IMG/VR virus record: IMGVR_UViG_3300021142_000021
Span: 18,376-82,375 of that record
Strand: one strand, 5' to 3'
Source of the DNA: a virus
Length of the DNA stretch: 64,000 nucleotides
Every line of letters starts with the position of its first letter. The stretch's first letter is position 1. Under the pieces are notes generated by a model. It ran no database searches and had not been told where the DNA came from. It worked only from the letters and a program-made list of their open reading frames with translations. Positions 75 through 64,000 of the stretch are shown piece by piece. The translations under genes and the position numbers were made by a program.

Positions 75-2639
75 ATGTCGTATACAGATACACTAACCAG
101 AACAACAAAAACAACGAAATCTGATGCCGGCGAGGCAATGGGTCGGTCATCGCCGCTGACTGGGTTGTTTATAGGATTTATAAAAGAAGCGACAGACGTC
201 CAAAGAAACGGTAGATTACGTGTGTGGATTCCAGAATTTGGCTCTGCACCAGATAACCCCGATGGATGGACGATTTGCAGCTATTGTTCACCGTTTGCTG
301 GTGCGACAAACGTCGATACTATAAGCAAGACAGACACTCATTCATTTGATCAGACGCAGACATCATACGGTATGTGGATGGTGCCGCCTGACATTAATAA
401 TGAAGTATTGGTAATGTTTATTAATGGTGATGCATCTAGAGGGATATGGATTGGATGCCTGTATAATCAGTTTATGAATAATATGATTCCCGGTATGGCT
501 GCAGATGCTAAGAACTGGGAATATCCGGGCAAGGTTATACCTGTTGCCGAATATAATAAATGGGATAACATTGATACTCCTGATCGAGCAATTAAACCGT
601 ATCAGAAGACGAAATTTAAAGGTGTCGGTAATCAGGGACTTATTAACGATAAAGGTCGCGGCACAACAACATCCGGCGCAAGACGCGAAGCGCCAAGTAC
701 TGTATTCGGTATTATTACTCCGGGACCATTAATTGATAGCAATGTGACCTCTGATAAGTTTAGAAGAAAAGGTGGCTCATCCTTTATTATGGATGACGGC
801 GATGGTACAGAGTATGTTCAGCTTGTTACAAAGACAGGTGCCCAGATTAGACTAGATGAAACCAATGGTTTTGTTTACATGATTAATCGAGATGGTACAG
901 CATGGGTTCAGATGGATCAAACTGGAAACATAGATATCTTTAGTGCTGCTACTATCTCCTTACGCGGCCAGAAAGATATCAATATTCGTGCAGACAGAAA
1001 TGTAAATATTGAGGCGGGACAAAACGTCTTTATAAAGGCAGCGAAAGATACAATACAAGAAACTACTGTATTCACATATGATGTAAATAATGTACCGAAA
1101 ACAAAGACTATCCCTGTCTGGAACTATAAAGGCGAGGGACTCGGTGACGGTGGCAATATTGTTATGCAGGCTCTTAATAACTGGCACAGCACTACACAAA
1201 ATAATGCATTCTTAACTGTTGTTAATAATGATATGGACATTGATATCGGTAATGCATTTAGTCTTACAACAATTGCAGCAGGTCAAGATTATAATGCTAA
1301 ATTAGGTATTAAGATGTCTACTCAAGCTTCTATAGATTTAGTGGCAACAAGTAATATCAGAGTAGGAGCAAATGGTAGCGTATCTGTTGTAGGTATGGGC
1401 GATGTCGTATTATGTACTAGTGCTAATATGAGTCTTAATGCATCAGGTAATATTATAGAAACTGCTGCAGGATCATTCTCGTTAGATGCATCATTTGTGG
1501 GAATTGGCACTAGCGTTGGTATTAATGGAAACTTAGATGTCACTGGCAATATAACAGGCGGCACCATAGTAGGAAATTTCCCGGGACTTCGCGGCGGCGA
1601 TGGCGCCACAACTGGCGGCCCTGGTGCAGCACCATCACTAAGTTCACCTATTGCTGCACAACCTGCAATGACATCAGGTGTTGCTAAACAAGCCGAAATA
1701 AAACCACTTGTTGAGAAAATTAATATTCTTGCAACCTGGATTCCTACTGTAACATACCCTAAGTGGAAAAAAGATACGGCATACAATTCTGGCGATCTTA
1801 TTACCAATAATGATATTATATACATATGCAATGCAGGTGGCCAACCACCATCGGCAACATTTCCTGCACAACAATGGACAATACTTATTCCAGAAGATAA
1901 GTTTAAGAGAAAGGCCGAGTCTTTAGAAACAACACTTTCTAGACTTCCTACATATGAACCGTGCCCAGAACATGAAAACTTTGGTTTTGGATCTATTAGC
2001 GGTTATACACCAAAACAGACAGAAGCATCTAAGACATATGAAGGTTCGGGTGGTGCAGGTGGCGGAGCAACATCGTCGCCGGCGACTAACACAACACCGG
2101 GTGCAAATAATAAAGATATTGCACCTGTACCAGCCGAAGATAGTGCAATATCCAAAGACTTTAACATGGCCGCTTATCAATGCGAACTAAAGATAAACGA
2201 AGGTGTAAAATACGTCTCTTATAAGGATACAAAGGGTTTGCCAACAGGCGGCATTGGTCACTTATTGCGTCAAAATGAAATATCACAATATCCTGTACCG
2301 ACTACTATTTCCGAAGCACAAGTCAACACTTGGTTCCAGTCTGATGCGCCAAGTTCAATAGGTGGCGCACAACGATTATTAGGTATGGATTGTTGGAGTG
2401 GTTTATCTGATATTAGAAAACGTGCATGTGCAGACTTATGTTACAATATGGGTGAAGGTGGATTATCCAAATTCAAGAGCTTCTTAGCAGCAATGAAGGC
2501 AGGTAATTTCAATGAAGCTGGAGCACAATTAAAGAGTTCTGCTTGGTTTAACCAGGTAGGACAACGTGGTCCACGAATTATAACAATGATTGTACAAAAC
2601 GTCGACAGCAACGGTTGCGATAAAAAGTGGCCGACATGA
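75..2639 (+). CDS. Baseplate hub/spike protein (T4 gp5/VgrG-like) with a CBM-like insert and C-terminal phage lysozyme (GH24)
   Basis: N-terminal OB-fold-like GRLRVWIPEF...PPDINNEVLVMF, beta-helix repeats, W-x5-Y-x2-GD-x6-YIC module, lysozyme motif EGVKYVSYKDTKGLPTGGIGHLL. Confidence 0.85.
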   Translation: MSYTDTLTRTTKTTKSDAGEAMGRSSPLTGLFIGFIKEATDVQRNGRLRVWIPEFGSAPDNPDGWTICSYCSPFAGATNVDTISKTDTHSFDQTQTSYGMWMVPPDINNEVLVMFINGDASRGIWIGCLYNQFMNNMIPGMAADAKNWEYPGKVIPVAEYNKWDNIDTPDRAIKPYQKTKFKGVGNQGLINDKGRGTTTSGARREAPSTVFGIITPGPLIDSNVTSDKFRRKGGSSFIMDDGDGTEYVQLVTKTGAQIRLDETNGFVYMINRDGTAWVQMDQTGNIDIFSAATISLRGQKDINIRADRNVNIEAGQNVFIKAAKDTIQETTVFTYDVNNVPKTKTIPVWNYKGEGLGDGGNIVMQALNNWHSTTQNNAFLTVVNNDMDIDIGNAFSLTTIAAGQDYNAKLGIKMSTQASIDLVATSNIRVGANGSVSVVGMGDVVLCTSANMSLNASGNIIETAAGSFSLDASFVGIGTSVGINGNLDVTGNITGGTIVGNFPGLRGGDGATTGGPGAAPSLSSPIAAQPAMTSGVAKQAEIKPLVEKINILATWIPTVTYPKWKKDTAYNSGDLITNNDIIYICNAGGQPPSATFPAQQWTILIPEDKFKRKAESLETTLSRLPTYEPCPEHENFGFGSISGYTPKQTEASKTYEGSGGAGGGATSSPATNTTPGANNKDIAPVPAEDSAISKDFNMAAYQCELKINEGVKYVSYKDTKGLPTGGIGHLLRQNEISQYPVPTTISEAQVNTWFQSDAPSSIGGAQRLLGMDCWSGLSDIRKRACADLCYNMGEGGLSKFKSFLAAMKAGNFNEAGAQLKSSAWFNQVGQRGPRIITMIVQNVDSNGCDKKWPT

Positions 2640-2645
2640 TAAATA
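2638..2645 (+). promoter_or_regulatory. Late promoter GATAAATA (T4 TATAAATA-like)
   Basis: Recurrent motif, here 4 nt before ATG 2650. Confidence 0.65.
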
Positions 2646-2649
2646 TAGT

Positions 2650-3375
2650 ATGAACTATATACAACATTATAATAATCTAATAGATCGAGCAAAATATAGA
2701 AATCTCGAAATATATAAAGAACAACATCATATATTACCGATATGCATAGGTGGGACGAATCATAAAGATAATCTTGTTTATCTTACACCCGAAGAACATC
2801 TTATTGCACACTTGTTATTGATTAAAATATATAATGATCCTAAGTTAATATATGCGGCTAAGTGGATGACAAATCGTGTAAAAAATAATAAAGAATATGG
2901 GTGGTTAAGAAAAAAACATTCGGAAATAATGTCGAATCGAATTATTTCTAATGAAACAAAACAAAAGATGTCTATAGCTCAGAAGAATAGACCAAAAGAC
3001 GTACAAGACAGAATAACTTATGCCCAACAAAATAGATCTCCCGAAACAAGAAAGAATATGTCAGATGCACATATGGGACATATAGTATCAGATGAGACAA
3101 AAGAAAAAATTAGAAACGCAAATATAGGTAGACGACATACAGAAGAAACCAAACAGAAAATGTCTGCATCCCGATCGGGAGAAAAGAATCATAGTTTTGG
3201 AAAAAGTCCAACCCAAGAGACACGATTGAAAATGAAAGAATCGGCTAAAAATAGGCCACCACAGTCAGCAGAGACAAAAAGAAAGAAATCTGAAAAATTA
3301 AAAGGCAGAATTATGTCTACTGAAACAAAACAGAAGATGCGAGACGCTGCAAATAAACGATATCATAAGGAATAA
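2650..3375 (+). CDS. HNH homing endonuclease with NUMOD3 repeats
   Basis: EQHHILPICIGG...NLVYLTPEEHLIAHLLL; repeated SxETKxKMS; start moved to ATG 2650. Confidence 0.9.
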   Translation: MNYIQHYNNLIDRAKYRNLEIYKEQHHILPICIGGTNHKDNLVYLTPEEHLIAHLLLIKIYNDPKLIYAAKWMTNRVKNNKEYGWLRKKHSEIMSNRIISNETKQKMSIAQKNRPKDVQDRITYAQQNRSPETRKNMSDAHMGHIVSDETKEKIRNANIGRRHTEETKQKMSASRSGEKNHSFGKSPTQETRLKMKESAKNRPPQSAETKRKKSEKLKGRIMSTETKQKMRDAANKRYHKE

Positions 3376-4211: not shown

Positions 4212-4631
4212 ATGGCATCAAATCAGCGTGGGTTAGTTCAGAAAAACATCATAACAAGGAAACCCTACTTTGTTGGATTCAACACGGTAAACCAGCCCTC
4301 ACCTCCGTATTCGATGACTAATATTAATTTAGTCAAGAGAGATATCCTGAATCAATTTGCTACACCACTGGGAACTAGACTAATGTTGCCGGGATTTGGT
4401 ACAAACATTTATAGCTATTTGTTTGATCCGTTTGATGATTATACTAAAAATGCAATTATTGAAGATGCCGTAAGAGTTGTACAAGACGAACCGCGAGTAG
4501 AACTTGTATCTATTGATGTCTTCCAAAGTGACCAAGCATTAACTATTGCTATGGTATTATTATTTGTACCAGAATCTATTACTGATAGTTTATTTGCTAC
4601 ATTCTCGCTAACCGATAAGGAATCGTTCTAA
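4212..4631 (+). CDS. Baseplate wedge protein, gp25-like
   Basis: LVKRDILNQFATPLGTRLMLPGFGT...DEPRV. Confidence 0.9.
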   Translation: MASNQRGLVQKNIITRKPYFVGFNTVNQPSPPYSMTNINLVKRDILNQFATPLGTRLMLPGFGTNIYSYLFDPFDDYTKNAIIEDAVRVVQDEPRVELVSIDVFQSDQALTIAMVLLFVPESITDSLFATFSLTDKESF

Positions 4632-7600
4632 TGTCTGAAAGTATTCGCCAGTCAAATCTTTTCGCCTCAGAAGATTATAAGAAAGTCTTTCAGGCATATC
4701 AATTTATTGATTATACAGCCTATGACTTCGACACACTAAAGCAGGCAATGATTAATTATATTCAGATCTATTATCCTGAAGATTTTAACGATTATGTTGA
4801 AAGTTCTGAATTTATTGCAATCATCGAACTTATTGCATACTTCGGAACAAGTTTAGCATTTAGAACTGACTTAAATAGTCGCGAAAACTTTATTGATACA
4901 GCCGAACGTAGAGAAAGTATTATCCGTTTAGCTCAGATGGTTAATTATGTTCCAAGTAGAAATATTGCCGCAGCTGGATTATTTAAGGTTGCGTCTGTGC
5001 AAACAAATCAGCCACTTACTGATGCAAACGGTATTAATATTGGTTCTCGTTCGGTATATTGGAACGATCCCAATAATCCAGATTGGTTTGACCAATTTGT
5101 GCAAATTTGTAATGCTGCATTTAGCTCGCTAAATCCGTTCGGTCGTCCTACAAAAAGCGGAGTAATAGGAAATATTCCAACTGACCTATACCAGTTAAAT
5201 AATGTTACAAGACAAAATGTTACATATCCGGCTATTATTACTATCAATAGTCAGCAGTATCCTATAGATATCTGTAATCCAGATTTTATATCTAATCAAA
5301 CAATCTTTGAGAGGGATCCAGATCCTGATAACGCATTTAATTTCTTATACAGAAATGATAGTCTCGGTGTCGCATCTGCAAATACTGGGTTCTTTCTATA
5401 CTTTAAGCAAGGCAATTTAATAAACACAGATACGAATTTTGATTTCCCTGTGCCAAATAGATTATTCCCGATTGATATTCAGAATATTAATCAAGATGAC
5501 GTGTATGTTCAACAGACGGATCAGACAGGTACGGTTATAAACAAATGGCTTAAGGTGCCTGCACTCGCCGGGGAAAATATTATCTACAATAGTATTCAGT
5601 TTGCACAAAGAAATATTTTTGACGTATTATCTGGTGCTAATGATACTGTCACTATAAGATTTGCTGATGGTAATTTCGGTAATGTACCGACAGGATTATT
5701 TAGATTCTGGACTCGTATTAGTGCAAATCAAGCTCTTGTTATTAGACCAAATGATGCACAAGGTCTTCAGATCAATATTCCTTATATTGGAGTAGATCAG
5801 CAATCATATACATTGCAAGTTATTTTCAATTTAGAACAAACAATTGGTAATGCTGCTCCATCAGAAACTAATGATCAAATTAGATTGCGTGCTCCAGAAG
5901 TATTCTCAACGCAATCTCGTATGGTTAATGGTAGTGACTATAATGTTCTACCACTTATTTACGGTAATCAGATTACAAAGTTACAGGCAATAGCTAGAAC
6001 ATTTAGTGGAGATAGTCGTTATATCGACCTAAATGACCCAACTGGTTTCCATAAGGATTTAATTATATTCGGGCAAGATGGTGCATTATTTAGAGATAAT
6101 CAAAACGTATTAACAGAAGTTATACAAGACTCATCTAACTCGGGAACAATTAATCAGATCCTTGTAAACACAATTCAGTCAATGTTGCAAGATCCTAAAG
6201 TTAATAAGTTCTTCTATGATGAATACGTGCCTCAATTCGAGTCTACGATTAGAGTTAATCCGCCAAACACCGGTAGATCATTACTGGATTTAGTGCCAAC
6301 ATTGGGTGATCCTTCGTCGCCACTATTCTGGCAGACAAGCCCTGCTAAATTTAAAAATACAACAGGGTTCTTTAGTGGAGCAGCGGGTTCTCCTACAGCC
6401 TTACCATTAGTAAATACACTCACACCAGATAATCTTCCAAACAGTGTGTATGAACCGTGGAACCTTATATCTGCAGGGGCAGTATTACAATTTGAATTAC
6501 CAGGAGACTCAACTACACTGAACTCGGCAGGGGTGAATAGTGTTATTCAAAATGGTATTCCACAAATTGTTAATCCATTAAATCCATATGCTAATATCGG
6601 CCCGATAGAATTGGGTGTGAATGAACAAGTGAATTATCGCGCAGCAAAGGTGTATCCTGCTTTTAGAAATGTATTAAATTCTACAGAAATTAACGGTAAT
6701 GGTGGGTCCGAACCTACAGGATTCTATGGAATTAACAACAGAATAAATGATGGACAATCATTCTGGATGTATTATGATTTATTAACAGACGAATGGCATA
6801 CATTTGCGAATCCGGGAGCAGGCGTATCACAACCGTTTGAATATGCACCTGCCGATATTGATATAATAAGCGGGACTCCACAAATCTATTCAACAACTAA
6901 TTGGACAACAACAACACAGGGTGGTCTATTATATATTTCTATTGTTCCTAATCTAGATACAACAGTAACATATGATCTAACGGCTAGAGGCCGAGTTTAC
7001 GTTTTTGAATCATATAGAGATGTTAGATTCTATTGGGAACCAAATAAAGTTATTATCGATAATGCCTCTGGATTAGCATTGCAAGATTCTATTGAATTTA
7101 TGCCCTTCATTAATACAAATGCTTCTATTGATAACAACTTACCGCCAGCGCCACCAATTAATGGTCTAACAGCATTTCTGAATGCTCGGGTTGATTTTAA
7201 TATCTCCGGAGTATATATTCAGGACGATGGATATCTTGATAATGCCAAAGTGCAGATATCACTTGTTGATGTAAATGGTGATGGTATACCCGATGACCCA
7301 GGTGCATTTGACAGAATAGTTTCAACAACAGATAGAGTTGTGTTTGAATATTATACAGATGCTATATCCGGTTATCAAAGTACTCGTCCGTGGATTTCTA
7401 GGTGGAAAACTAATCTAGAAAATATATCTACACCATTATATGTTTATTTCCCTATGTTAACCCCGGGAAGTGATATAACAATTTACAGTTCACCATATAT
7501 AGCAGATCAAATATTAACAGGTACAGATATTCTTAATCCTGGCGGCGTTAGTGGACTTAATTATGTATATATGGATTCTGTAGATTTACTATTCATTAAT

Positions 7601-54751: not shown

Positions 54752-54957
54752 TACATCCACCTTAATTTGAATATTACAGCATCTTCCTGTTCCAGGAATA
54801 CACCTGCTAAATGACCATTCACATGACCCCATTCGGGCTCTGTATTTTCTTTTAACCAGTCAATCATGCCATCGGGTGCCTTAAATTCACCATACTTACC
54901 ATGCGGAGGAAAAGCAACGTATATAACACCCTCTCCATATTCTCTAACTGACATCAT
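54751..54957 (-). CDS. FKLKFGL-family mini-protein 13
   Basis: Ends QEDAVIFKLRWM. Confidence 0.8.
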   Translation of the reverse strand: MMSVREYGEGVIYVAFPPHGKYGEFKAPDGMIDWLKENTEPEWGHVNGHLAGVFLEQEDAVIFKLRWM

Positions 54958-55229
54958 GGTAATGGTTTAGCCTGTAGTTTAATCCACATAAATTCTTCCA
55001 TGTCGCATTCGCCGAATGTCTCTTTTAAATCTTCCATTCGATTTTTATAATATCTAACTTCGTTATCTTCCTCACGCCATACTCTTTCCGCGAGTGTCAA
55101 TGCCGTGCTATTATATAGTAATCTCGTCTCGAAATGTTCGTTAGAGATGCTATGAACATCGCGCTGCACCCAATACCTGCCTCGTACACCATACCAAGAA
55201 CCATCTGCCTCGTAATAAAGATTTACCAT
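54954..55229 (-). CDS. FKLKFGL-family mini-protein 12 (divergent)
   Basis: Ends MEEFMWIKLQAKPLP. Confidence 0.65.
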   Translation of the reverse strand: MVNLYYEADGSWYGVRGRYWVQRDVHSISNEHFETRLLYNSTALTLAERVWREEDNEVRYYKNRMEDLKETFGECDMEEFMWIKLQAKPLP

Positions 55230-55230
55230 A

Positions 55231-55446
55231 TTATCTAAACATCAATTTAAAAACTAAAACATCTGCTTCATCTGCAAAGATTAGAAACTCAGTGTTTCCT
55301 ACTCTATCTACTGTTCTTGTTGCTCTAAAGTCTTCTGATAACCATAACCAAATAGAAGTAACAAAAAACCCATCTCTATTCTGAATATCGTTACCGTAGT
55401 AATAAGCTACCATATTCTTCCAGTAGGGATATGCGTATAGTTTCAT
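55231..55446 (-). CDS. FKLKFGL-family mini-protein 11
   Basis: Ends EADVLVFKLMFR. Confidence 0.8.
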   Translation of the reverse strand: MKLYAYPYWKNMVAYYYGNDIQNRDGFFVTSIWLWLSEDFRATRTVDRVGNTEFLIFADEADVLVFKLMFR

Positions 55447-55631
55447 AGTCCGCTCATTAATTTAAACGCTACTGCATCCATCTCGTCTTCGAATTGTATA
55501 GAAATTATACGACCCAGGTAACCGTGCTTACGTGGCTCACGCACTACAACACCTCCGTGAGTCTTAGCCCATACAAGTAAAGGATACCTAGGCTTGACTA
55601 CTTTAAAATAATTGTATTCTATGCTTATCAT
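55443..55631 (-). CDS. FKLKFGL-family mini-protein 10
   Basis: Ends EMDAVAFKLMSGL. Confidence 0.8.
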   Translation of the reverse strand: MISIEYNYFKVVKPRYPLLVWAKTHGGVVVREPRKHGYLGRIISIQFEDEMDAVAFKLMSGL

Positions 55632-55858
55632 AATCCATACTTCAATCTAAATGCTGTAGCATCCTCACGCCTGACAAATGTTACAGCAAATACAGCCTTA
55701 CCATAGTTATATTTCTTCATTCTAAATGCAGGGTTACCGCGCTTAGTTTTTGGTAATGCTGCCAACCAATGTGATTGTTCTATCAATACCTGCACATCAA
55801 GGTTGGCCACAGAGTCCATTATGTCGTTACCTTTTTTAAAGATGTAAATTGTTTTCAT
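55628..55858 (-). CDS. FKLKFGL-family mini-protein 9
   Basis: Ends REDATAFRLKYGL. Confidence 0.8.
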   Translation of the reverse strand: MKTIYIFKKGNDIMDSVANLDVQVLIEQSHWLAALPKTKRGNPAFRMKKYNYGKAVFAVTFVRREDATAFRLKYGL

Positions 55859-56067
55859 AAACCAAACTTTAATTTAAATACCAACAGGTCTTCTTCACTA
55901 TCTAATAATACCATGTGATAATAGGTCTTACCGTCTAGATAAGTTTTACCACCATTATAATCCCAGACTGCATTATCACACATATGTATCCATTCGTTAA
56001 TCACAGAATACTCTTTAATAGCCCATGGTCGATAAAGTCGTACGTGTATGCCTTCTTCTACTATCAT
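55855..56067 (-). CDS. FKLKFGL-family mini-protein 8
   Basis: Ends EEDLLVFKLKFGL. Confidence 0.8.
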   Translation of the reverse strand: MIVEEGIHVRLYRPWAIKEYSVINEWIHMCDNAVWDYNGGKTYLDGKTYYHMVLLDSEEDLLVFKLKFGL

Positions 56068-56243
56068 AATCCAAACTTTAGTTTAAAAGCAATTGCGTCA
56101 TCTTCTCTTACAAAATACAGAGTTTGATCACCATGTAATTCGAATGTTACTTTATTCGGGGACTGTTTTATTAAGTCATCTAACCAATCGCATATTATAG
56201 AGTCAGGTATCTTATCATCCATTGGCCAATATACTTTTATCAT
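56064..56243 (-). CDS. FKLKFGL-family mini-protein 7 (59 aa, not in ORF track)
   Basis: MIKVYWPMDD...REDDAIAFKLKFGL; ATGA-coupled on both sides. Confidence 0.8.
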   Translation of the reverse strand: MIKVYWPMDDKIPDSIICDWLDDLIKQSPNKVTFELHGDQTLYFVREDDAIAFKLKFGL

Positions 56244-56413
56244 AATCCAAACTTTATCTTAAATGCAAGTGCATCTTCCTCGTAGAAGAACTCAATACTT
56301 TCTAGCATATTACTCCACCGCCAAACATTATTCTCAGTACCTAGTACTTCTTCCATCCACGCAATCATAGGAATAAAATCCATAAAGTTAACATTGCGTA
56401 TGTCTACAATCAT
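56240..56413 (-). CDS. FKLKFGL-family mini-protein 6 (57 aa, not in ORF track)
   Basis: MIVDIRNVNF...YEEDALAFKIKFGL. Confidence 0.8.
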   Translation of the reverse strand: MIVDIRNVNFMDFIPMIAWMEEVLGTENNVWRWSNMLESIEFFYEEDALAFKIKFGL

Positions 56414-56619
56414 ATTCCAAACTTTAATCTAAGTATTACAGCTTGTTCAGAATCTATGGTTACTCCACATAGATATCCCGGCCTGGATTTAGAAACACCC
56501 CAGCTAGAATAATTTTGATTTTGTTCTTCTATATTTTCATGTATCCAGTCTTCTAACTCTTTATTCTTAAGACGTTGATCATTGTATCGCTCCATACCAG
56601 CAAAACTAATATAACTCAT
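56410..56619 (-). CDS. FKLKFGL-family mini-protein 5
   Basis: Ends SEQAVILRLKFGI. Confidence 0.8.
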   Translation of the reverse strand: MSYISFAGMERYNDQRLKNKELEDWIHENIEEQNQNYSSWGVSKSRPGYLCGVTIDSEQAVILRLKFGI

Positions 56620-56795
56620 ATTCCTAGTTTTAACCTCATAATAATTGCATCCTCATCTGACATATCTATTCTATCAATAACAAAATCATCCTCACACATT
56701 GTATATGTGTATTGAATCTTATCATCGGCCAGCCATTGTAAAATTGTATTATACATAGGTAGTGGCAAACGTTTCATCTCAATGTACACCATCAT
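56616..56795 (-). CDS. FKLKFGL-family mini-protein 4 (59 aa, not in ORF track)
   Basis: MMVYIEMKRL...DEDAIIMRLKLGI. Confidence 0.75.
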   Translation of the reverse strand: MMVYIEMKRLPLPMYNTILQWLADDKIQYTYTMCEDDFVIDRIDMSDEDAIIMRLKLGI

Positions 56796-56982
56796 ACGCC
56801 CAATATTTAAGTTTAAAGGCTAATGCATCCTCCGAATTACCAAACGTAATAGTATCAGTAGCACTGCTCCAATGATAATCCTTTATATTGTTATCATCTA
56901 GCCAACCCTTCATTTCCTTATAGTATGCTATGTCCTGCCGTTGCTTAATATAAAAGCTATGTAAAGGATATATCATAATCAT
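56779..56982 (-). CDS. FKLKFGL-family mini-protein 3
   Basis: SEDALAFKLKY followed by a short frameshift-like tail WAYDGVH. Confidence 0.8.
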   Translation of the reverse strand: MIMIYPLHSFYIKQRQDIAYYKEMKGWLDDNNIKDYHWSSATDTITFGNSEDALAFKLKYWAYDGVH

Positions 56983-57176
56983 AATGCAAACTTTAATTTG
57001 ATTATGGTAGCATCTTCGTCGTTTAGTATAAGTCCAAGAAACATTCCATTTCTAAAATCCCAATCAGGTTCTTCTATATTTTCTACTACCCAATTATAGA
57101 CGTGTGACGGAATACCACCTATCCAGACTCCTGGTGCATTTAATTTTGGCAACCCTCTGAAGTTAATATATGTCAT
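56979..57176 (-). CDS. FKLKFGL-family mini-protein 2
   Basis: Ends DEDATIIKLKFAL. Confidence 0.8.
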   Translation of the reverse strand: MTYINFRGLPKLNAPGVWIGGIPSHVYNWVVENIEEPDWDFRNGMFLGLILNDEDATIIKLKFAL

Positions 57177-57463
57177 ACAATAAAACTTAGTTTAAACATT
57201 AATGCAACTTGAGCTTCCTTAAAATAGATACCCTGTGCGTAACGATCCCCTGTACGGTATTCCCATGTTTCCCCTCGTGAACCTAAGTGCTCCTCTAACC
57301 AAATCATATAGCTATTCATAAGTCTAACCTTAACACCATAAGAGCGTGGATCATTATCTAAATCATGAAGATCAACATATGTCCAATTTGAAAAGTTTAC
57401 ATAACGTTTAGGAACACCCTTATGGTCTAGAGATTCGGAAATGTGATTGTCAATGGGAATCAT
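57173..57463 (-). CDS. FKLKFGL-family mini-protein 1
   Basis: Ends AQVALMFKLSFIV; start at ATG 57463 (or 57469). Confidence 0.7.
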   Translation of the reverse strand: MIPIDNHISESLDHKGVPKRYVNFSNWTYVDLHDLDNDPRSYGVKVRLMNSYMIWLEEHLGSRGETWEYRTGDRYAQGIYFKEAQVALMFKLSFIV

Positions 57464-57469
57464 AGACAT

Positions 57470-57498
57470 AGTATAACAATGATTAAGTTGGATGTCAA
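57470..57498 (-). promoter_or_regulatory. Sigma70 promoter TTGACA-N17-TATACT (extended -10) heading the mini-gene array
   Basis: Minus strand TTGACA tccaacttaatcattgt TATACT. Confidence 0.8.
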
Positions 57499-57577
57499 GT
57501 GGGGAGGGTGGTTTGTATCTGGCGTCGTAGACGCGCCGTAAGCGCAATTTTTCTAGACTAGTTATCTACCGCTATAA

Positions 57578-57652
57578 CTATTTTACTTCAGCGTGTATTA
57601 CATTCCACCCAGGATTGCGTCTAAGCTCTAGGAGTAATTCTTGAAGTTGCAT
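57578..57652 (-). CDS. 24-aa mini-ORF or gene remnant under a late promoter
   Basis: MQLQELLLELRRNPGWNVIHAEVK; GATAAATA at 57660-57667 (-). Confidence 0.4.
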   Translation of the reverse strand: MQLQELLLELRRNPGWNVIHAEVK

Positions 57653-57754
57653 AATCCTATATTTATCTTGAGGGAGGTCCTATAGGATTACAGTAGAAAA
57701 TTTGTGTAAAAATTTTTGGAGGGTAAGGATATTGTGACCGACCAAAGTTTTTCC

Positions 57755-57803
57755 GGGACCTATAGAGATAGAACGATTAGAAAGGAGGGACCTATAGAGA
57801 TAG
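57755..57803 (+). repeat. Direct repeat GGGACCTATAGAGATAG x2 (32-bp period)
   Basis: 57755-57771 and 57787-57803. Confidence 0.9.
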
Positions 57804-57880
57804 GCGAAAAAACATAGGGCACGCTTGCCCGCGCCTCTCTATCTTTACCTTTTTGTAAAATTACACGACTGACTGGGATT

Positions 57881-57920
57881 TTACAAAACTTTACATAACT
57901 TTACATAACTTTACATTACT
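57881..57920 (+). repeat. Tandem 10-mer TTACAWWACT x4
   Basis: ttacaaaact ttacataact ttacataact ttacattact. Confidence 0.95.
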
Positions 57921-58090
57921 GTGTCTCGCTTGCCACTGCACGCAACTAAATGTAAGTGCGAGGCAACGTGCTGCACGTTAGCACACGCTAACATACAGTC
58001 TCGCTGCTACTATGCACGCTACATGCATAGTAGCACGGGGGTGCTACATGTAACACATGTAACATAGCTTGCGCTATGCTACGTTATGTG

Positions 58091-58429
58091 TTAAGCAAAC
58101 AAGCGCAATACAATTGCGTTTTGCGTTTGCACAACACTAGCGTTATATTGCTTTGCAAGTAGCATTAAGTTGCTACATACTTGCGCGTTGTTAACTTTAA
58201 TGCTAACAAACTTAGCACGTAAGTTTGTGTACACGCGCTGCTTAAAGTACGTTGCTTGCACAGCACGCGCTAATGCTGCTACTGTAGCGTGCTGTGCTGC
58301 TGTGTACAGCGCAGCGTTTGCAGCGTTTTGTGCGCGTACTTGCAACAGCGTAATAAACGCGCTGTGCTTTACGTTTGTGTTAGCTTGTGTTTTAACAAGC
58401 TGCTGCTGTGCTTTTGTAAGTTTACGCAT
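58091..58429 (-). CDS. Hypothetical 112-aa protein with no D, E, G, P or W
   Basis: Leader homologous to that of 58847; hairpins downstream of the stop. Confidence 0.7.
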   Translation of the reverse strand: MRKLTKAQQQLVKTQANTNVKHSAFITLLQVRAQNAANAALYTAAQHATVAALARAVQATYFKQRVYTNLRAKFVSIKVNNAQVCSNLMLLAKQYNASVVQTQNAIVLRLFA

Positions 58430-58475
58430 AATTGCTTTACTTTGTTTGTGCTGCACATTATTGTACAGTGCTTGT

Positions 58476-58504
58476 ATTATAACGCTTTTTTGTGCTGCTG
58501 TGTG
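58476..58504 (-). promoter_or_regulatory. Putative GR-free promoter CACACA-N17-TATAAT (left)
   Basis: Same spacing as 58763-58791. Confidence 0.55.
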
Positions 58505-58762
58505 CTACTTTACAAACTGTTACACTTTAGCATTTCATGCTGCATTGCTCAAGTTGCACAGCGAGGGGTTAATGTTTTATGCGCTGCACACTGCCTCGCA
58601 ATTATTTTAAGCTTGCTGAAAATTTTTAACGAGAGCTGTGCTATAATATGTTTAACGCGCAATGTATAACTGTAACTATACTTTTTGGGCCTCGCTTAGC
58701 AAATAGCAATAATGCAGCATGAACTTGTTAGATGTAACAGTTTGTAAGTTGCAAAAATACAA

Positions 58763-58791
58763 CACACAAAACATAAAAAGTGCGCTATAAT
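58763..58791 (+). promoter_or_regulatory. Putative GR-free promoter CACACA-N17-TATAAT (right)
   Basis: Mirror of 58476-58504. Confidence 0.55.
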
Positions 58792-58846
58792 AATAACACT
58801 GCACAGCAATAATGCTAAGTGCAGCAACTTAGTAAAGTAAACAATT

Positions 58847-59440
58847 ATGCTTACATTAGCTTACGCGCAAGCTGCAATTGCAGCGCACAAAAACAACAAA
58901 GTAAATGCTACGCGCATTAGTGCTTTGTTGCAACAATACAACAACACAGCTACAATCGCAAACGTAACGCAAGTTACGCAAGTGCAATGCAGCGCGGCAA
59001 ACAAAAATGTTGTTATACAAAAAGTAACACGCGCAAGTGTGTTGCTGTTTGCTAACGCATTAAATTATGTTGCTTGCGTACAACGCAGCGCAGCTAAAAT
59101 TGCAGACAACGACGCTGCTGCAATCGCGCAATTTACAGCAAGCGCAGCAAGCTTTACGCACGATGCTAACTGCTACAGCATTGTTACAAACAACAATAGC
59201 GCACAGCAATATTTGTATTTGCACTACAACAACGCGCAAAGTGTGTATGTTTTAAACAACACAATTATTAGTGCTGCAACTGCTGCAAGCTTTTGCAGTG
59301 CAAGCGTAGCAAAAGCAATGTTGCAAACAAGCAACACTACGCACAATGTTAGCAATAACGTAACGCATAGCATTTGTGTACGCACTGTAAAGTTGCAAAA
59401 CATTGTGCGTTTAGCTGCGCTAAAGCAAGTGTTGCAGTAA
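58847..59440 (+). CDS. Hypothetical 197-aa protein with no E, G, P or W and only 3 D
   Basis: Long ORF with promoter and terminator. Confidence 0.8.
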   Translation: MLTLAYAQAAIAAHKNNKVNATRISALLQQYNNTATIANVTQVTQVQCSAANKNVVIQKVTRASVLLFANALNYVACVQRSAAKIADNDAAAIAQFTASAASFTHDANCYSIVTNNNSAQQYLYLHYNNAQSVYVLNNTIISAATAASFCSASVAKAMLQTSNTTHNVSNNVTHSICVRTVKLQNIVRLAALKQVLQ

Positions 59441-59470
59441 AACAACAAGTAGCGCAAGCTACTTAACGCA

Positions 59471-59497
59471 AAGCGCACTATTTTAGTGCGCTTTTTT
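59471..59497 (+). terminator. Intrinsic terminator
   Basis: aagcgcacta-ttt-tagtgcgctt followed by a T run. Confidence 0.85.
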
Positions 59498-59561
59498 ATG
59501 CGCGTTATAATCGTGCTGCATTGCTCAAGTCCTGCAACGAGGGGAAGTGCTGCTGTGTCGT

Positions 59562-59718
59562 GCTACTGTTTTTAAAGACGTACATGCGTGCAAAGCGAGG
59601 GCAACACATTGTTACATCTTGCTTTTAGGCTAAGCTTAGTCTACATCCTTTAAGCAAGATGTAACACACACGCGCATCTCGCTATTGTTTTTAAAGACGT
59701 ACATGCGTGCAAAGCGAG
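59562..59718 (+). repeat. 38-bp direct repeat x2 flanking a long hairpin
   Basis: GCTAYTGTTTTTAAAGACGTACATGCGTGCAAAGCGAG at 59562-59599 and 59681-59718; 15-bp stem 59610-59624/59652-59666. Confidence 0.9.
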
Positions 59719-60018
59719 AGGGGCACAATATTGCTAACCTATCTACCATTTTGCTGTGTCCGTGCTGCAGGTTTTTTAGGTATTAAAAACCTAATACGAG
59801 AGGGTGCTTTGACATTTATAAGCAACTGTAGTAAACAGCGTTTAAAAGCAATACTGCTACTCTGCTATTAACTTTTGTTTTAGTGCTGCTGTAGCGCGTT
59901 TTAAGCTGCTTGCTGCACGTTGTAAACTAGCTGTGTAAAGCAAGCACGCAACACAAAGGTGTGTCTCGCACTAGGTTTTTAAGGATAAAAAATCCTGCAG
60001 CGAGACTATGCGGCCACA

Positions 60019-60041
60019 ATAAAAGGGACCTAAGTCCCTTT
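60019..60041 (-). terminator. Intrinsic terminator for minus-strand early genes
   Basis: aaagggac-ctaa-gtcccttt with a T run on the minus strand. Confidence 0.75.
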
Positions 60042-60060
60042 GTGTGTCGCCCAGTAAGGG

Positions 60061-60309
60061 CTAGTCGTTTATAATCAGCGCCGTGCAGTAAGCGAGCGCA
60101 CTGTTTAAGCTGACACTGTTCATTGTGGGCTTGTAACGCCAGCCCATTGTGTCCTCACCGCTTGCGTCTTTGTCAGCGCCTGTAAACATAAACGCATAGC
60201 CGTCTATGCTGATGTATTGCCCCGGGGAGCCAATCTGCAGGTCGCTTGCCTCTGCGACGTAGGTTTTGCTGATGGGATTGTAATCAAACTGTTCTGATTT
60301 GAAGTTCAT
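60061..60309 (-). CDS. Hypothetical early protein
   Basis: AAGGAG SD before ATG 60309. Confidence 0.75.
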   Translation of the reverse strand: MNFKSEQFDYNPISKTYVAEASDLQIGSPGQYISIDGYAFMFTGADKDASGEDTMGWRYKPTMNSVSLNSALAYCTALIIND

Positions 60310-60319
60310 CTGCTGCTCC

Positions 60320-60421
60320 TTAGAGGAATGTGTAAAGGATGACAATCGCCATTACAACCAATACAATAAGCACAGGTTGTAAGTCCCTTACACCTATTAG
60401 GTCTTGTAGAAAGCGTTTCAT
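60320..60421 (-). CDS. 33-aa membrane peptide (not in ORF track)
   Basis: MKRFLQDLIGVRDLQPVLIVLVVMAIVILYTFL; AAGGAG SD; promoter upstream. Confidence 0.7.
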   Translation of the reverse strand: MKRFLQDLIGVRDLQPVLIVLVVMAIVILYTFL

Positions 60422-60445
60422 GCTGCTCCTTGTTGCGATGTATGT

Positions 60446-60474
60446 ATTATAGCGCAGTAGGAGCAGGTTGTCAA
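60446..60474 (-). promoter_or_regulatory. Consensus sigma70 promoter TTGACA-N17-TATAAT
   Basis: Perfect consensus. Confidence 0.9.
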
Positions 60475-60767
60475 TCCTCTTCTACGACTTTTTTCGCCTT
60501 AGGTGGCAGGGGTGTAAGTGCCTCGCCAAATAGCTTCTGGAGTTTGCGTTGGATTGCGAGAGCGGTGACATCACGCACCTCAGCGGCATCAAACTTAACC
60601 TTCAGACGAGCAACTGACTCATCAAGGTATCGCCTCGACACATCGCTCAAGGTCGTCTGATAGGCGCACGAGGTTTGCACCAGCGATGTGTCATAGCCTG
60701 CCAGGAGGATGTAGCCACGGTCCTTGTCGGCGGGCATAACGCGGATGAAGAGGGTTTGTATTTTCAT
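60471..60767 (-). CDS. Hypothetical early protein
   Basis: ATGA-coupled to 60764-60916. Confidence 0.75.
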   Translation of the reverse strand: MKIQTLFIRVMPADKDRGYILLAGYDTSLVQTSCAYQTTLSDVSRRYLDESVARLKVKFDAAEVRDVTALAIQRKLQKLFGEALTPLPPKAKKVVEED

Positions 60768-60916
60768 TTGAAGCTGCTTTCAATCTTTTTGCAGAGTGCG
60801 TCATACTGTTCTTTAGTCAAAGGCGTGAACCGTTGACTCTCACTTCTGTGAACATGCTCTGCATAGCCCGTTGTGCGCTCCCAGTATTTGTCGTGTTGTT
60901 CGGGTGTGAAGTCCAT
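60764..60916 (-). CDS. 50-aa hypothetical protein (not in ORF track)
   Basis: MDFTPEQHDKYWERTTG...; AAGGAG SD. Confidence 0.75.
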   Translation of the reverse strand: MDFTPEQHDKYWERTTGYAEHVHRSESQRFTPLTKEQYDALCKKIESSFK

Positions 60917-60939
60917 CTGTGCTCCTTGTTGCTTACGCT

Positions 60940-60967
60940 ATTATAGCACAGAAAACAGTGCTGTCAA
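60940..60967 (-). promoter_or_regulatory. Sigma70 promoter TTGACA-N16-TATAAT
   Basis: Consensus hexamers. Confidence 0.85.
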
Positions 60968-60979
60968 GCACTGCCACAC

Positions 60980-61216
60980 TTAATAAACTTCGAGCTCGTG
61001 TATGCAATAACGTGCGCCGAGCTGTCGTAGCGCAGCTCTGCAGGGTTCAGGCGAGACACTCCAGAACGTGTAGTCGATCTCTTGCTTAAGATCGGCTGTA
61101 ATCTCGCATTCGTACAGTTCATAGATGTCATTGTTGCTGAGGTTGATGCACGCTTCTGCGAACTGTTGCATACTGTGAATGCGCTTTGCAAGTGCTTTGA
61201 GTTGCTTACGTGACAT
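60980..61216 (-). CDS. Hypothetical early protein
   Basis: MSRKQLKALAK; AAGGAG SD before ATG 61216. Confidence 0.75.
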   Translation of the reverse strand: MSRKQLKALAKRIHSMQQFAEACINLSNNDIYELYECEITADLKQEIDYTFWSVSPEPCRAALRQLGARYCIHELEVY

Positions 61217-61244
61217 ATTGTGTACTCCTTGTTGCGATGTGTTT

Positions 61245-61273
61245 ATTATAGCGCAAAGGAACTGTGCTGTCAA
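61245..61273 (-). promoter_or_regulatory. Consensus sigma70 promoter TTGACA-N17-TATAAT
   Basis: Perfect consensus. Confidence 0.9.
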
Positions 61274-61905
61274 CAACTATTTTTCGCCTCGGTACCGATG
61301 CACGCAACTACTTTTGTCTGCAGAGACTTGCGTTTATTGCGTTCACGCTGTTGTGCATTTCTACGTAATCTTATTTCATCGGGTGTTAAATTTAACTTAT
61401 TATGTGGTACTCTGCCCATCTTAGCGCGGGATTCTGCTGTATGTTTTTTACCGAACATATGATTATTCGAGCCCTGTAGTGCTACACTAATTTTAGCATT
61501 ACGCGCTGGATTAGTCCATACTTCTTGCATTGATGCTGTATAACGTTCCATAGTCTCGGGTTTAGCATAGGCAGAACGATTGCTTATGCTCGAGGCTTGT
61601 TTTGCGGCATCTGTGTGTATGTAGCCACTGCTTCCATCTCCTCCATCGGATTTGTTACGAAGTATGCCAGTCCCATTGTCCTTTCTTCCATACCAGCGTA
61701 TAATACGACGCTCAATAGCGAACGCACCTAACTCAGTAAGGTTAGCCTCAAGAATTACTATGAGAGCTCTATTAGTTGGAGGCGAGACTATGTGTTGTTT
61801 GCTCTTAGAGCGTTTTCCCTTACCTTTGCCTATATAGTAAGGTGTCCCATCCTCGCGTAAGTAAGCGTAGACATAGAACGCAAGGGACGAGACTATTTTA
61901 TACAT
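61270..61905 (-). CDS. GIY-YIG homing endonuclease with NUMOD3 motifs
   Basis: [19 protein letters not shown]...ILRNKSDGG; GATAAATA at 61910-61917 (-). Confidence 0.9.
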
Positions 61906-62048
61906 ACGCTATTTATCGATTGTAAGCAGATGTAACAGTTAAAATAATGCTTGCTCGAAGTTGTTTTCTGCCATATAATAAGCACATGGAAACAAATAAA
62001 GCAAACAAAAAGCAAGCGCAAGCAAGCATGTTTGTTACAATTTATTTG

Positions 62049-62077
62049 TTGACATTGGAGCACAATGGTGCTACAAT
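62049..62077 (+). promoter_or_regulatory. Sigma70 promoter TTGACA-N17-TACAAT
   Basis: Extended -10 TG present. Confidence 0.8.
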
Positions 62078-62141
62078 ACATATATGCGCTAAACGGTGCA
62101 TATTGTTTAACTAACGTGCTAAGGCACAAAGGAGAGCTATC

Positions 62142-62621
62142 ATCGATAAAGGAATCAGACCGGCCGCGAACGCCAAGTTTTTGGAGTTGCTCCCCACCCG
62201 CGCTGAAATTGGCAACACCGGCTTCCGCAAGAACGTTATGTTTTACGTGATGGAGGAATTCGGCATCACGCTTGCAAGTGCTGCAACGCACTACAATCAC
62301 GCTTTCCAAGCTGTTAAGCTTGCAACTCCCGAGCTGGTGGAAGGGCTGGGGCGTGCAGACGACAAGAAGGGCGGACGCAAGCCCAAAGCTGTTGTTGTTG
62401 CAGAAGCTGTTGCTGTGCTGCTTGGCACGCCGGAAGCTGTTGCAACACCCGCAGTTGGCGGCGAAGTCAGCAATGCAGGCGAAACTGCTCCAGAGCAGAC
62501 GGTGTTTACAGTGAAGAAGAAGTCCGACGACACGGTGATCGGGACGTTCAGCTTCGAAGATGCAAAGGCGTTGGTGGCAAAGGCTGCTGCTGCTAAGAAG
62601 GCTGCACTTTATTACGTTTGA
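62142..62621 (+). CDS. Hypothetical early protein, apparent ATC start
   Basis: AAAGGAG SD 7 nt before in-frame ATC-GAT-AAA; alternative TTG start at 62181. Confidence 0.7.
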   Translation: MDKGIRPAANAKFLELLPTRAEIGNTGFRKNVMFYVMEEFGITLASAATHYNHAFQAVKLATPELVEGLGRADDKKGGRKPKAVVVAEAVAVLLGTPEAVATPAVGGEVSNAGETAPEQTVFTVKKKSDDTVIGTFSFEDAKALVAKAAAAKKAALYYV

Positions 62622-62636
62622 TTGATAAATAAGAGC

Positions 62637-63299
62637 ATGAGCTCTTATTACGTTTACGCTTACCTTAGGACAGGAAACCTAACACCTTATTACATAGGTA
62701 AAGGTAAGCGCGAACGTGCCTTCATAAAACACGGTAGAATTACCGTACCAAAAGATAAATCTCGTATCGTGTTCTTAGAATGTAACCTATCAGAGATAGG
62801 TGCATTCGCTATAGAACGACGTATGATTAAATGGTATGGTAGAAAAGATAATGGAACAGGTATTCTTAGGAACATAACCGATGGTGGAGACGGGTGTTCG
62901 GGTCGTATCTATAGACACACAGCAGAAACTAAAGCTAAGATTAGTGCTGCTCAGGTAGGAATGCTGCGCGGACCTCATACAGAAGAGACAAAGTCAAAAC
63001 TCAAGGCAGCGAGGGCACTTAGACCTCCCGCCTCGGATGAGACTCGCAGGCGTATGAGTGAATCTCTCCGAGGAGAAAAGAATCCCAACTTTGGAAAAAC
63101 TGCTACAGCTGAACAGCTAGAAGCTGCCAGTGCATTACGTCGTAATATACCTAGATCGCCTACTGCCTGTGCTAAACATAGCGCCACAATAAAAGGCATA
63201 CCAAAACCTAAACTCACTTGCCCTCACTGCGGGCTCACTGGCGGCACCCCGCAAATGAAGAGATATCATTTTGATAACTGCAAACAAAAACCTATGTAG
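62637..63299 (+). CDS. GIY-YIG homing endonuclease with NUMOD3 and C-terminal zinc-finger motif
   Basis: YYVYAYLR...PYYIGKG; CPHC...HFDNC; GATAAATA at 62624-62631. Confidence 0.9.
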
Positions 63300-63460
63300 G
63301 AATGATACTCCGATCGGCGGTTATATCTATATACATCTGTTATGTCGATCCTGTGTAGCGGTCTGTCTTGACTACGTTGTTAATGTAGTCACACGCAGGA
63401 AGCACATACGCATTACTTACACATTTGTTAGTCTAAGATTAGCCTTTTTCTGGCTAATCC

Positions 63461-63634
63461 CTAGTCACCAAACGCATATACAAGCATAGGTTCGTCCTCT
63501 AAGCACTCAACGCGCACAATATCTGTATCGCGGAGCATCTCTTCTTGAAGATCACACGCTTCCATCTCATTGCATTGCTCAGCACACAGCACAGCACCCT
63601 TTGCACTGTAGCCAATGATAGTTACTGTTGTCAT
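63461..63634 (-). CDS. 57-aa acidic hypothetical protein (not in ORF track)
   Basis: MTTVTIIGYSAKG...; GGAG SD; hairpin gattagcc/ggctaatc after the stop. Confidence 0.7.
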   Translation of the reverse strand: MTTVTIIGYSAKGAVLCAEQCNEMEACDLQEEMLRDTDIVRVECLEDEPMLVYAFGD

Positions 63635-63648
63635 ACGATACTCCAGTG

Positions 63649-63795
63649 TTAAAAGGGGATAATCTGCGTCTTAGCACGCAGGCCATGTTGCATCTGATAC
63701 AAGCGGCATTCCTGTAGTGTGCCTATCATGTAAGCTGAACCAACTACTACACTACCGAACTTACCTTCATCGGATACAACCATGTACTTGCCCAT
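63649..63795 (-). CDS. 48-aa hypothetical protein (not in ORF track)
   Basis: MGKYMVVSDEG...; AGGAG SD; promoter TAGACC-N17-TATAAT at 63829-63857. Confidence 0.7.
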   Translation of the reverse strand: MGKYMVVSDEGKFGSVVVGSAYMIGTLQECRLYQMQHGLRAKTQIIPF

Positions 63796-64000
63796 ACGTT
63801 ACTCCTGTGTGTAGTGTGCTATGTATGTATTATACTGTCTGCAGGAGCAAAGGTCTATGCCTGTTTAGGCCTCTAGGCGGGAAAGTTGTGCCAGAACCTG
63901 TCGCTAGATCCCAGTTTTAGTTTCCAATTCTGGTTTGGACTTTTGATCTGGAAACCTAGGATCAGATTGACAGTTCATGCACTCACAGTCATAGCGAGTC

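Follow-up and report, generated by a model that had tools for sequence, protein, structure and literature searches.

Repeated elements in the early regions of phage genomes that bind proteins or mark boundaries are known in outline from the PeSLs of T4-type phages, the stoperators of mycobacteriophages, and the operators of dimeric repressors and activators. Here, we describe a family of elements found in 64,000 nucleotides of viral DNA (positions 18,376 to 82,375 of IMG/VR virus record IMGVR_UViG_3300021142_000021; hereafter, the window), which form the final part of a virus contig of 82,375 bp, estimated to be 21% complete. Each element carries two short inverted ends, CTCG on the left and CGAG on the right, held at discrete distances around an interior that is free to vary. 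This family is real, conserved, and statistically secure, and its design is distinctive; the elements are most likely a set of putative protein-binding sites. To judge from a limited literature search that was not aimed at it, this combination of paired short inverted ends, a freely varying interior, spacing in discrete classes, and a further lineage that keeps the plan but uses another end sequence appears to be undescribed.

Like these elements, PeSLs (PMC2839356) are short repeated intergenic motifs lying amid the small, separately promoted early genes of a large myovirus. Both have been linked to shuffling from strain to strain, and the window and its near-identical relative L007 also carry a repeated promoter-leader unit for each small gene (handles such as L007 denote metagenome loci around homologues of a 197-aa gene discussed below). 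However, a PeSL combines a sigma-70 promoter with a terminator hairpin, whereas the elements described here consist of inverted ends of 6-10 bp, a set distance apart, that bear no constant relation to -10 boxes, form no consistent hairpin, and, in the window copies, are not followed by a T-run. We found neither a sigma-70 early promoter joined to the motif nor a terminator stem-loop followed by a T-run, although a few of the copies in L008 are terminator-like. The promoter-leader unit (TTGACA-17-TATAAT, then ...CAACAAGGAG...) lies 5′ of each small early gene at 60300-61000 of the window (- strand), at 3250-5290 of L007, and at 3040-4005 of L008, where it takes the form of four copies of a 79-nt repeat; in all three, the layout is like that of PeSL cassettes.

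The operators of dimeric repressors and activators share with the elements their inverted conserved half-sites, strict order (CTCG, then CGAG), fixed spacing, and lineage-specific half-site sequence, but here 36-45 bp, not a few, separate the half-sites, which fall into several spacing classes and occur in dozens of copies, some of them in genes. REP and REPIN sequences are also short, multi-copy, palindrome-ended, and intergenic, often in tandem arrays and in either orientation; in contrast, the interior here is unpaired, only ~6 bp are conserved at each end, and the elements do not fold as imperfect palindromes. No RAYT-type gene turned up in general scans of the open reading frames (ORFs) of this incomplete genome, a RAYT-directed search not being among them. 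The attC sites of integrons are imperfect palindromes that are recognised as folded single strands and have a GTTRRRY core. They resemble the elements in having conserved inverse ends, an interior that varies in sequence and length, and a position at the boundaries of small cassettes, but here the interior is unfolded, the core is different, and no integrase was seen. The stoperators of Cluster A mycobacteriophages are single asymmetric 13-bp sites, present in many copies that also lie in transcribed DNA; the likeness is in the many short putative protein-binding sites across one part of a genome, transcribed DNA included, and the difference is in the paired inverted ends and long spacer seen here. 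Nor do the elements form a CRISPR-like array: what is conserved is a pair of inverted and not direct repeats, and linkers of varying length (20-50 nt) separate one element from the next.

Part of the family lies in a blank island (57877..60005 of the window), in which GA, GG, TC, and CC are almost absent on both strands, so that the elements stand on a blank background. Runs free of these dinucleotides reach 495, 349, and 225 nt in the island, while the longest elsewhere in the contig is 62 nt, the contig mean being 55 such dinucleotides per 300 nt. Among the 87 exceptions within 57,877-60,005, 38 fall in 14 half-sites (8 CGAG and 6 CTCG) and 6 within the two island genes, which bears out the proposal of a first-pass annotation that CTCGC...GCGAG elements supply many of the exceptions. 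Similarly, the island has 20 GAG/CTC triplets, comprising 14 in CGAG/CTCG, 3 that are the second GAG of GAGAG, and 3 CTC without a following G, and 17 of the 20 belong to half-sites; elsewhere in the contig, CGAG/CTCG account for 198 of 1194 such triplets (17%). When CTCG-to-CGAG pairs at 34-37 bp are counted, the island holds four, against a mean of 0.004 and a maximum of 1 in 1000 dinucleotide-preserving shuffles, and a further five lie at 60,011-64,000 (0.14 expected; none of 1000 shuffles reached five), all five with the YCTCG...CGAGR form. The other 76 kb of the contig have none (0.69 expected). Between 57.9 and 63.1 kb there are thus nine pairs where fewer than 0.2 would be expected, and these shuffles, together with the distance histograms, rule out a chance origin of the pairs.

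Four of the island elements are intact pairs, for which we give the CTCG-to-CGAG distance: E1 (57924..57963; gTCTCGC-N28-GCGAGGc, with TCTCGC at 57924 and GCGAGG at 57958; distance 34), E4 (58594..58634; gCCTCGC-N29-ACGAGAg, with CCTCGC at 58594 and ACGAGA at 58629; distance 35), E7 (59677..59723; aTCTCGC-N31-GCGAGAGGGG, with TCTCGC at 59677 and GCGAGA at 59714; distance 37), and E8 (59964..60005; gTCTCGC-N30-GCGAGAc, with TCTCGC at 59964 and GCGAGA at 60000; distance 36). Three others keep the class distance with one decayed end each. E2 (57999..58041) reads TCTCGC, TGCTACTATGCA, 7 nt, TGCATAGTAGCA, and CGGGGG, and thus has a perfect 12-bp stem with a 7-nt loop, its right end being CGGGG rather than CGAGR at distance 36; E6 (59558..59601), a paralogue of E7 within a 52-nt direct repeat (87% identical), has a left end decayed to TCGTGC and a right end GCGAGGG at distance 37; and E9 (59759..59804), a decayed inverted copy of E8 (38 nt, 79% complementary), has TCCGTGC on the left and ACGAGAGGG on the right. 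E3 (58535..58568, + strand) and E5 (59511..59544, + strand) are copies 1 and 2 of a 34-nt direct repeat (82% identical) that contains the 17-mer TGCTGCATTGCTCAAGT followed by N7 and CGAGGGG, at 58538 and 59514. E3, which ends in GCGAGGGG, has a left end TCATGC at distance 26 and is not an intact pair, while E5 directly follows the TATAAT at 59505 and ends in ACGAGGGG. The 31-nt unit TGCTGCATTGCTCAAGT-N7-CGAGGGG occurs only in the analysed phage and its near-identical copy L007; four viral-contig matches to the 17-mer were set aside as chance matches in ordinary DNA. A lone half-site, CCTCGC (58690..58695, - strand), has no partner at class distances. For right ends of the CGAGGGG type, a reading as Shine-Dalgarno sites was not favoured: start codons do follow some of them, but the ORFs that begin there, read by eye, are just 12-46 codons long, and such a reading would not account for the CG that always precedes GAG.

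To the right of the island, all five pairs lie inside ORFs, which shows that the elements extend beyond the blank island and beyond intergenic DNA. Two are in ORF 60471..60767 (-), at 60521..60561 (CCTCGC...GCGAGA, distance 35) and 60633..60673 (CCTCGA...ACGAGG, distance 35). The remaining three are in two genes for homing endonucleases of the GIY-YIG/NUMOD3 type: 61554..61595 (TCTCGG...TCGAGG, distance 36) and 61851..61892 (CCTCGC...ACGAGA, distance 36) in ORF 61270..61905 (-), and 63031..63073 (CCTCGG...CCGAGG, distance 37) in ORF 62622..63299 (+). A third homing endonuclease gene, of the HNH type, lies at 2590-3375 (+). The first-pass annotation had placed all elements between genes, which is true with respect to the two conserved genes of the island but not of these five pairs. 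All of its element coordinates were correct, and the half-sites it had noted at 58561, 58690, 59537, 59595, and 59796, the perfect 12-bp stem of the variant at 57999, and the repeat of the 17-mer-N7-CGAGGGG at 58538 and 59514 were all recovered.

The spacing is also conserved in related phages. Loci that surround homologues of the 197-aa gene were pooled to a total of 292,561 bases, without duplicates (L016, L022, L025, L055, and L063), the near-identical L007, and chance loci (L001-L004). In this pool, CTCG is followed by CGAG at 35, 36, and 37 bp in 9, 12, and 8 pairs and at 44, 45, 46, and 47 bp in 15, 11, 9, and 4, while other distances have 0-5 pairs each; the elements thus fall into two sharp classes, 34-37 and 44-47 bp. 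The reverse order, CGAG then CTCG, gives no such peak (at most 7 pairs, at distance 49, followed by 6 at 10). Among all non-palindromic 4-mers, CTCG ranks first for inverted pairs at class distances, with 65 against 2.6 expected, and the next is the overlapping CCTC. The 79 elements at class distances come mostly from the closest clade: 16 from L011, all within 4 kb, 13 from L008, 9 from the analysed contig, 6 from L009, and 5 each from L010 and L013. A further 5 come from L029, 3 each from L021, L052, and L062, and 1-2 from each of eight loci, the last being near chance level. In G001, a 99%-complete relative of 353 kb in which the copy of the 197-aa gene is only partly depleted of the four dinucleotides, there is a single match to the element pattern, and the element is therefore clade-specific. 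The use of the two classes differs between lineages, with the short class only in the window, the long class only in L010, and mostly the long class in L008 and L011. For instance, the orthologues of E8, next to the terminator of a convergent operon, have a distance of 36 in the window and 46 in both L008 and L011, and they keep the ends and the flank around unrelated interiors. The idea that the pairs might occur at background frequency, without conserved spacing, thus clearly fails, and the first-pass proposal of retained, non-random sites is upheld by these orthologous copies, which keep their ends while the interior is replaced.

Over 62 distinct copies, the consensus is gtCTCGca...TgCGAGact, with neither the flanks nor the interior conserved. 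Such ends could pair as the closing stem of a hairpin, in which case the elements would act as RNA (or single-stranded DNA), for instance as a processing site, a stabiliser, a terminator, or a small RNA. The ends are indeed complementary and G+C-rich, pairing over up to 8-11 bp in some copies; a few interiors hold strong hairpins, such as the 12-bp stem of E2 and the long hairpins of L008 at 1349, 1421, and 1500 (-24 to -28 kcal/mol, followed by T-rich sequence, TTATTTT); and the right flank tends towards CTTT. However, the variable stem positions show no covariation: at the Y/R position of the 62 copies there are 17 C-G, 20 T-A, 12 C-A, and 13 T-G combinations, with Watson-Crick pairs at 37 against 31.1 expected and the C-A mismatches as common as T-G, and only about half of the positions beyond CTCG/CGAG pair. 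When the 79 elements were folded and compared with shuffles of the interior only, they were no more structured than the shuffles (mean z -0.71, median -0.38; mean z -0.30 in the second family described below). A stem of 4-6 bp around a loop of 26-38 nt is weak, and folding would not predict discrete length classes. No Rfam family was matched at its gathering score, the four matches found (E 0.17-0.26) all lying below it. A terminator scan found no intrinsic terminator built from both ends of an element, whose would-be loops are 26-38 nt; its sole hit at an element spans the left end of E8 (59958-59972) and has a stem of 6 pairs and a loop of 3 nt. On their 3′ side, the window copies continue with caacg, gctgt, gggg, or ctatg rather than a T-run. 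We consider it improbable that the elements act as folded RNA or single-stranded DNA.

A second family with the same design and a different end sequence is found in the same kind of region in L020, L031, L035, L038, L039, and L064, where the elements read tAGCCCC(R)...(Y)GGGGCt. In L020, L031, and L035 together (19,516 bases), GCCCC is followed by GGGGC at 28-29 bp in 5 pairs, at 37-41 bp in 25, and at 47-48 bp in 3, and there are no other pairs from 8 to 75 bp. The 48 distinct copies over the six loci have unstructured interiors, and the R/Y positions beside the GCCCC core show no covariation; many copies stand in head-to-tail arrays with a period of ~50 bp. A shared design with a different end sequence and length classes ~9-10 bp apart is what would be expected of homologous proteins with changed specificity.

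These observations make it quite possible that the elements are duplex-DNA sites for a putative dimeric, lineage-specific protein acting in the early-gene region. Recognition of the duplex by a putative symmetric protein is suggested because what is conserved is the sequence of the ends and not their pairing, and because the two ends keep a strict order and quantised distances around interiors that vary freely. Among the functions listed in the first-pass annotation, which also included a terminase, an injection-pause signal, and a recombinase, a dimeric DNA-binding protein is the best fit to the conserved half-site sequence, the unstructured interiors, and classes ~9-10 bp apart. The whole element (~45-55 bp) would be read as double-stranded DNA by a protein binding as a symmetric dimer or a dimer of dimers, with each subunit reading one end of ~7-10 bp (gYCTCGca). 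The intervening sequence would be unread, but its length would be held to discrete values that differ by roughly a turn of the helix, which would keep both ends facing the protein. The protein would probably be encoded by the phage, with a specificity that changes by lineage, reading CTCG ends in this clade and GCCCC ends in another. Its sites, scattered over the region of early cassettes driven by host promoters, may serve to regulate, insulate, or organise that DNA, and, in the purged island, the elements would survive the purge because they are functional.

Several observations weigh against this proposal. No binder of the ends was identified in this contig, which is 21% of a genome, and the 197-aa island protein reaches only Z 5-6 to WYL/Sm-like barrels. 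A centre-to-centre distance of 36-45 bp is long for a simple dimer, the step between classes is ~9 bp and not 10.5, each class is 3-4 bp wide, and five copies lie inside ORFs. A signature of A/T tracts or bending was not found, such tracts being present in 22 of 61 interiors and in 61 of 122 flank controls. There is no fixed or preferred distance to -10 boxes (TATAAT) that would show a classical operator role at promoters; single cases of proximity are E4, which ends 9 nt before the TATAAT at 58644, and GCCTCGC-N10-TATAAT, which occurs twice in L008. Moreover, some copies, such as the long hairpins of L008, may also act as RNA hairpins.

Another explanation is that the elements are recombination sites or cassette boundaries. 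As substrates of a site-specific recombinase, or as short repeats for general recombination, they would bring about the shuffling, inversion, or deletion of early-gene cassettes, much as PeSL cassettes work in T4-type phages; modular shuffling is a role ascribed to PeSLs (PMC2839356). L007 is 99.2% identical to the window over 57,315-60,014, differs inside E8, and is unrelated beyond it; strain variants likewise diverge at E8, which adjoins a hairpin terminator at 60022-60041, with contigs of public runs X17 and X20 carrying different DNA to the left of 59,998, the right end of E8. A contig of run X8 lacks 59,567-59,685 (119 nt), between the repeats of E6 and E7. L011 carries a 51-nt element (623-673) that recurs in inverted form, 100% identical, at 1892-1942, with the 197-aa gene between the two copies; two neighbouring elements of L008 have 22-nt outer arms that are 100% complementary; and E9 in the window is, as noted, inverted relative to E8. 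Every purged island segment is, in addition, directly bracketed by an element. Nevertheless, only 5 of 123 ends of homology blocks among clade members fall within 10 bp of an element, compared with 19.8 for random positions, in a crude test in which ends of the conserved gene block predominate. Searches of 50 ORFs against PHROGs and of 45 against Pfam, in a contig that represents 21% of the genome, turned up no integrase, transposase, or invertase. The junction evidence comes from one element, E8, and may reflect a single event, and the deletion between E6 and E7 needs only a 33-nt direct repeat. There are no target-site duplications: flanking direct repeats of 3-6 nt did not exceed expectation at five edge offsets, and matches of 2 nt at the element edge (13 against 4.5 expected) are too short to be meaningful. 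On this absence, an origin as miniature inverted-repeat transposable elements was rejected. Overall, we regard it as unlikely that the elements are recombination or cassette-boundary sites.

A further possibility, touched on in the first-pass annotation, which called the sites possibly modified, is that a base-modifying, nicking, or restriction-type enzyme acts on the half-sites; they could, for instance, be the sole modifiable G-purine sites of an otherwise unmodifiable island, read as head-to-head pairs. Because the purge is symmetric, it can be restated as the absence of any pyrimidine-C step (equivalently, any G-purine step) on either strand. Of 58 metagenome loci with a homologue of the 197-aa gene, ~35, from many lineages, show the purge around that homologue, and it is absent from the others; the loci with a purged stretch are L008, L010-L014, L017-L021, L023, L024, L026, L028, L031, L034, L035, L037, L042-L045, L050, L053, L054, and L056-L060. 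Observed/expected ratios at purged loci are 0.0-0.6 for CC, GG, GA, and TC and 2.2-3.5 for GC. L007 has a second, separate purged cassette at 4524-4997 (98-aa ORF 4582..4878, minus strand), which has a promoter to itself and lacks a Shine-Dalgarno site. Given that this is a single cassette amid ordinary early genes, the purge is a trait of particular transcription units and not of the genome end.

Cytosine deaminases that prefer YC exist, as does an mRNA ADP-ribosyltransferase that acts at GA. The primary binding clefts of Rho take 5′-YC dimers (PMC6144790), and the guanine transglycosylase of phage CAjan modifies G in GA and GGC contexts (PMC7544227), while that of phage iggy is reported to act at GA only. 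Any of these four kinds of activity, Rho clefts, phage guanine transglycosylases, YC deaminases, or the mRNA ADP-ribosyltransferase, may be a reader of the purged step. For modification of the half-sites in particular, it is suggestive that the island removes exactly the G-purine steps, that phage guanine transglycosylases with the contexts given are known, and that each half-site retains GA and G-purine on one strand. However, neither the 21%-complete contig nor the 99%-complete G001, with its only partly depleted gene and one element-pattern match, yielded a TGT/DpdA-type gene, and the ends of the GCCCC family have nothing in common with CGAG in sequence. Relatives that lack islands (L009, L029, and L062) carry elements too; therefore, the elements are not tied to the purge, and those inside the island are simply sequences that selection would not give up. 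A modifying or cleaving enzyme thus seems decidedly improbable as the reason for the half-sites.

The position of the cluster, 1-6 kb from the contig end, with the contigs of several relatives also stopping near the homologous gene, might suggest packaging signals for a terminase small subunit or injection-pause signals near a genome end. In lambda cosB, inverted R sites are ~45-50 bp apart around a bend. Nevertheless, there are at least 9 copies over more than 5 kb here and 16 in 4 kb in L011, and such numbers speak against one lone packaging or pause signal; some copies are located in genes, no terminase gene is nearby, and assembly by itself would be expected to end contigs in repeat-rich DNA. 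Of the explanations weighed here, we consider this one very improbable.

The two genes of the island are themselves unusual. Gene 1 (58091..58429, - strand) encodes 112 aa from ATG, contains no GA, GG, TC, or CC, and has homologues inside the islands of L014 (54%) and L037 (35%). Gene 2 (58847..59440, + strand), with only 6 exception dinucleotides, encodes the 197-aa protein, a member of a conserved uncharacterised family with 41 homologues of the same length in a large protein collection and 173 representative clusters by profile search. Among the 173 listed proteins of at least 150 aa, the content of Asp, Glu, Gly, Pro, and Trp is bimodal, at 0-3% in 38 and mostly 12-23% in the others; therefore, several lineages rewrote a normal protein in a 15-letter alphabet. 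The AF2 model of the 197-aa protein is confident (pLDDT 89), and a Foldseek comparison with the PDB gave nothing with E <= 0.001. The matches to WYL/Sm-like barrels at Z 5-6 are weak, below the level that would mean more than a common arrangement, and the model has four uncharacterised viral structural look-alikes. The island proteins had no match in Pfam or PHROGs and no usable match in Atlas, the 197-aa protein matched nothing in cultured phages by tblastn, and 12 relatives of normal composition gave nothing at the curated family cut-off, with two sub-threshold matches in Pfam. Both island genes lack a Shine-Dalgarno site and share the start context AAAGTAAA(G)CAATTATG (58430-58447 on the - strand; 58829-58849 on the + strand), while their ordinary early neighbours carry AAGGAG-type sites. 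To the left of the island (57660-57920), there is a palindrome, ATCCTATA...TATAGGAT, around GAGGGAGGTCC, together with two direct copies of GGGACCTATAGAGATAG (57756 and 57788) and three tandem copies of CTTTACATAA (57889-57920); a related motif, GGGAGGGACCTATAC, is present at the left island edge in L054 and L058-L060.

With respect to the phage as a whole, the contig encodes myovirus baseplate genes, including a wedge protein that is 41% identical to that of Pseudomonas phage PA5oct, with other giant phages more distant, and the window encodes a virion protein of 3376 aa. The same DNA was found in contigs of 20 freshwater metagenome runs, and a DNA search of cultured phages with 57,500-60,300 gave no match. 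A same-strand cluster of ~30 enzymes at 21770-49477, which looks like a sugar or glycan pathway, comprises nucleotidyltransferases, an aminotransferase, a carbamoyltransferase, radical-SAM/SPASM proteins, methyltransferases, and many paralogues of PHROG 13607. From ~50 kb on, there are small genes with consensus sigma-70 promoters. A tandem row of ~12 small paralogous ORFs (57-124 aa) occupies the minus strand at 54954-57547, ~11 of which (from 55231 on) have C-terminal motifs like ...(A/V)FKLKFGL, with no family match where this was tested.

A broader proposal joins the elements to the purge. The paired ends could be where a putative phage protein, co-evolving with them, docks to delimit and handle gene cassettes of a novel sort, namely small early genes with the entire transcription unit rewritten free of pyrimidine-C steps on both strands, and the ends would act as insulators or exchange points; we regard this as quite unlikely. 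If it were true, the DNA and RNA of these cassettes would be hidden from a host factor that reads this step, for which the YC-binding clefts of Rho, a YC-specific deaminase, or a G-purine-specific guanine modification would be candidates. The purged cassettes would also be so constrained that the proteins they encode do without Asp, Glu, Gly, Pro, and Trp.

Returning to the reading of the elements as putative sites of a dimeric protein, their design offers a testable handle on a DNA-binding system in uncultured freshwater giant phages. In addition, the elements mark functional sequence within a very unusual 2-kb stretch, one that lacks almost all of four dinucleotides on both strands. Thus, finding the protein that binds the ends would be a direct route to understanding why this region is built as it is.

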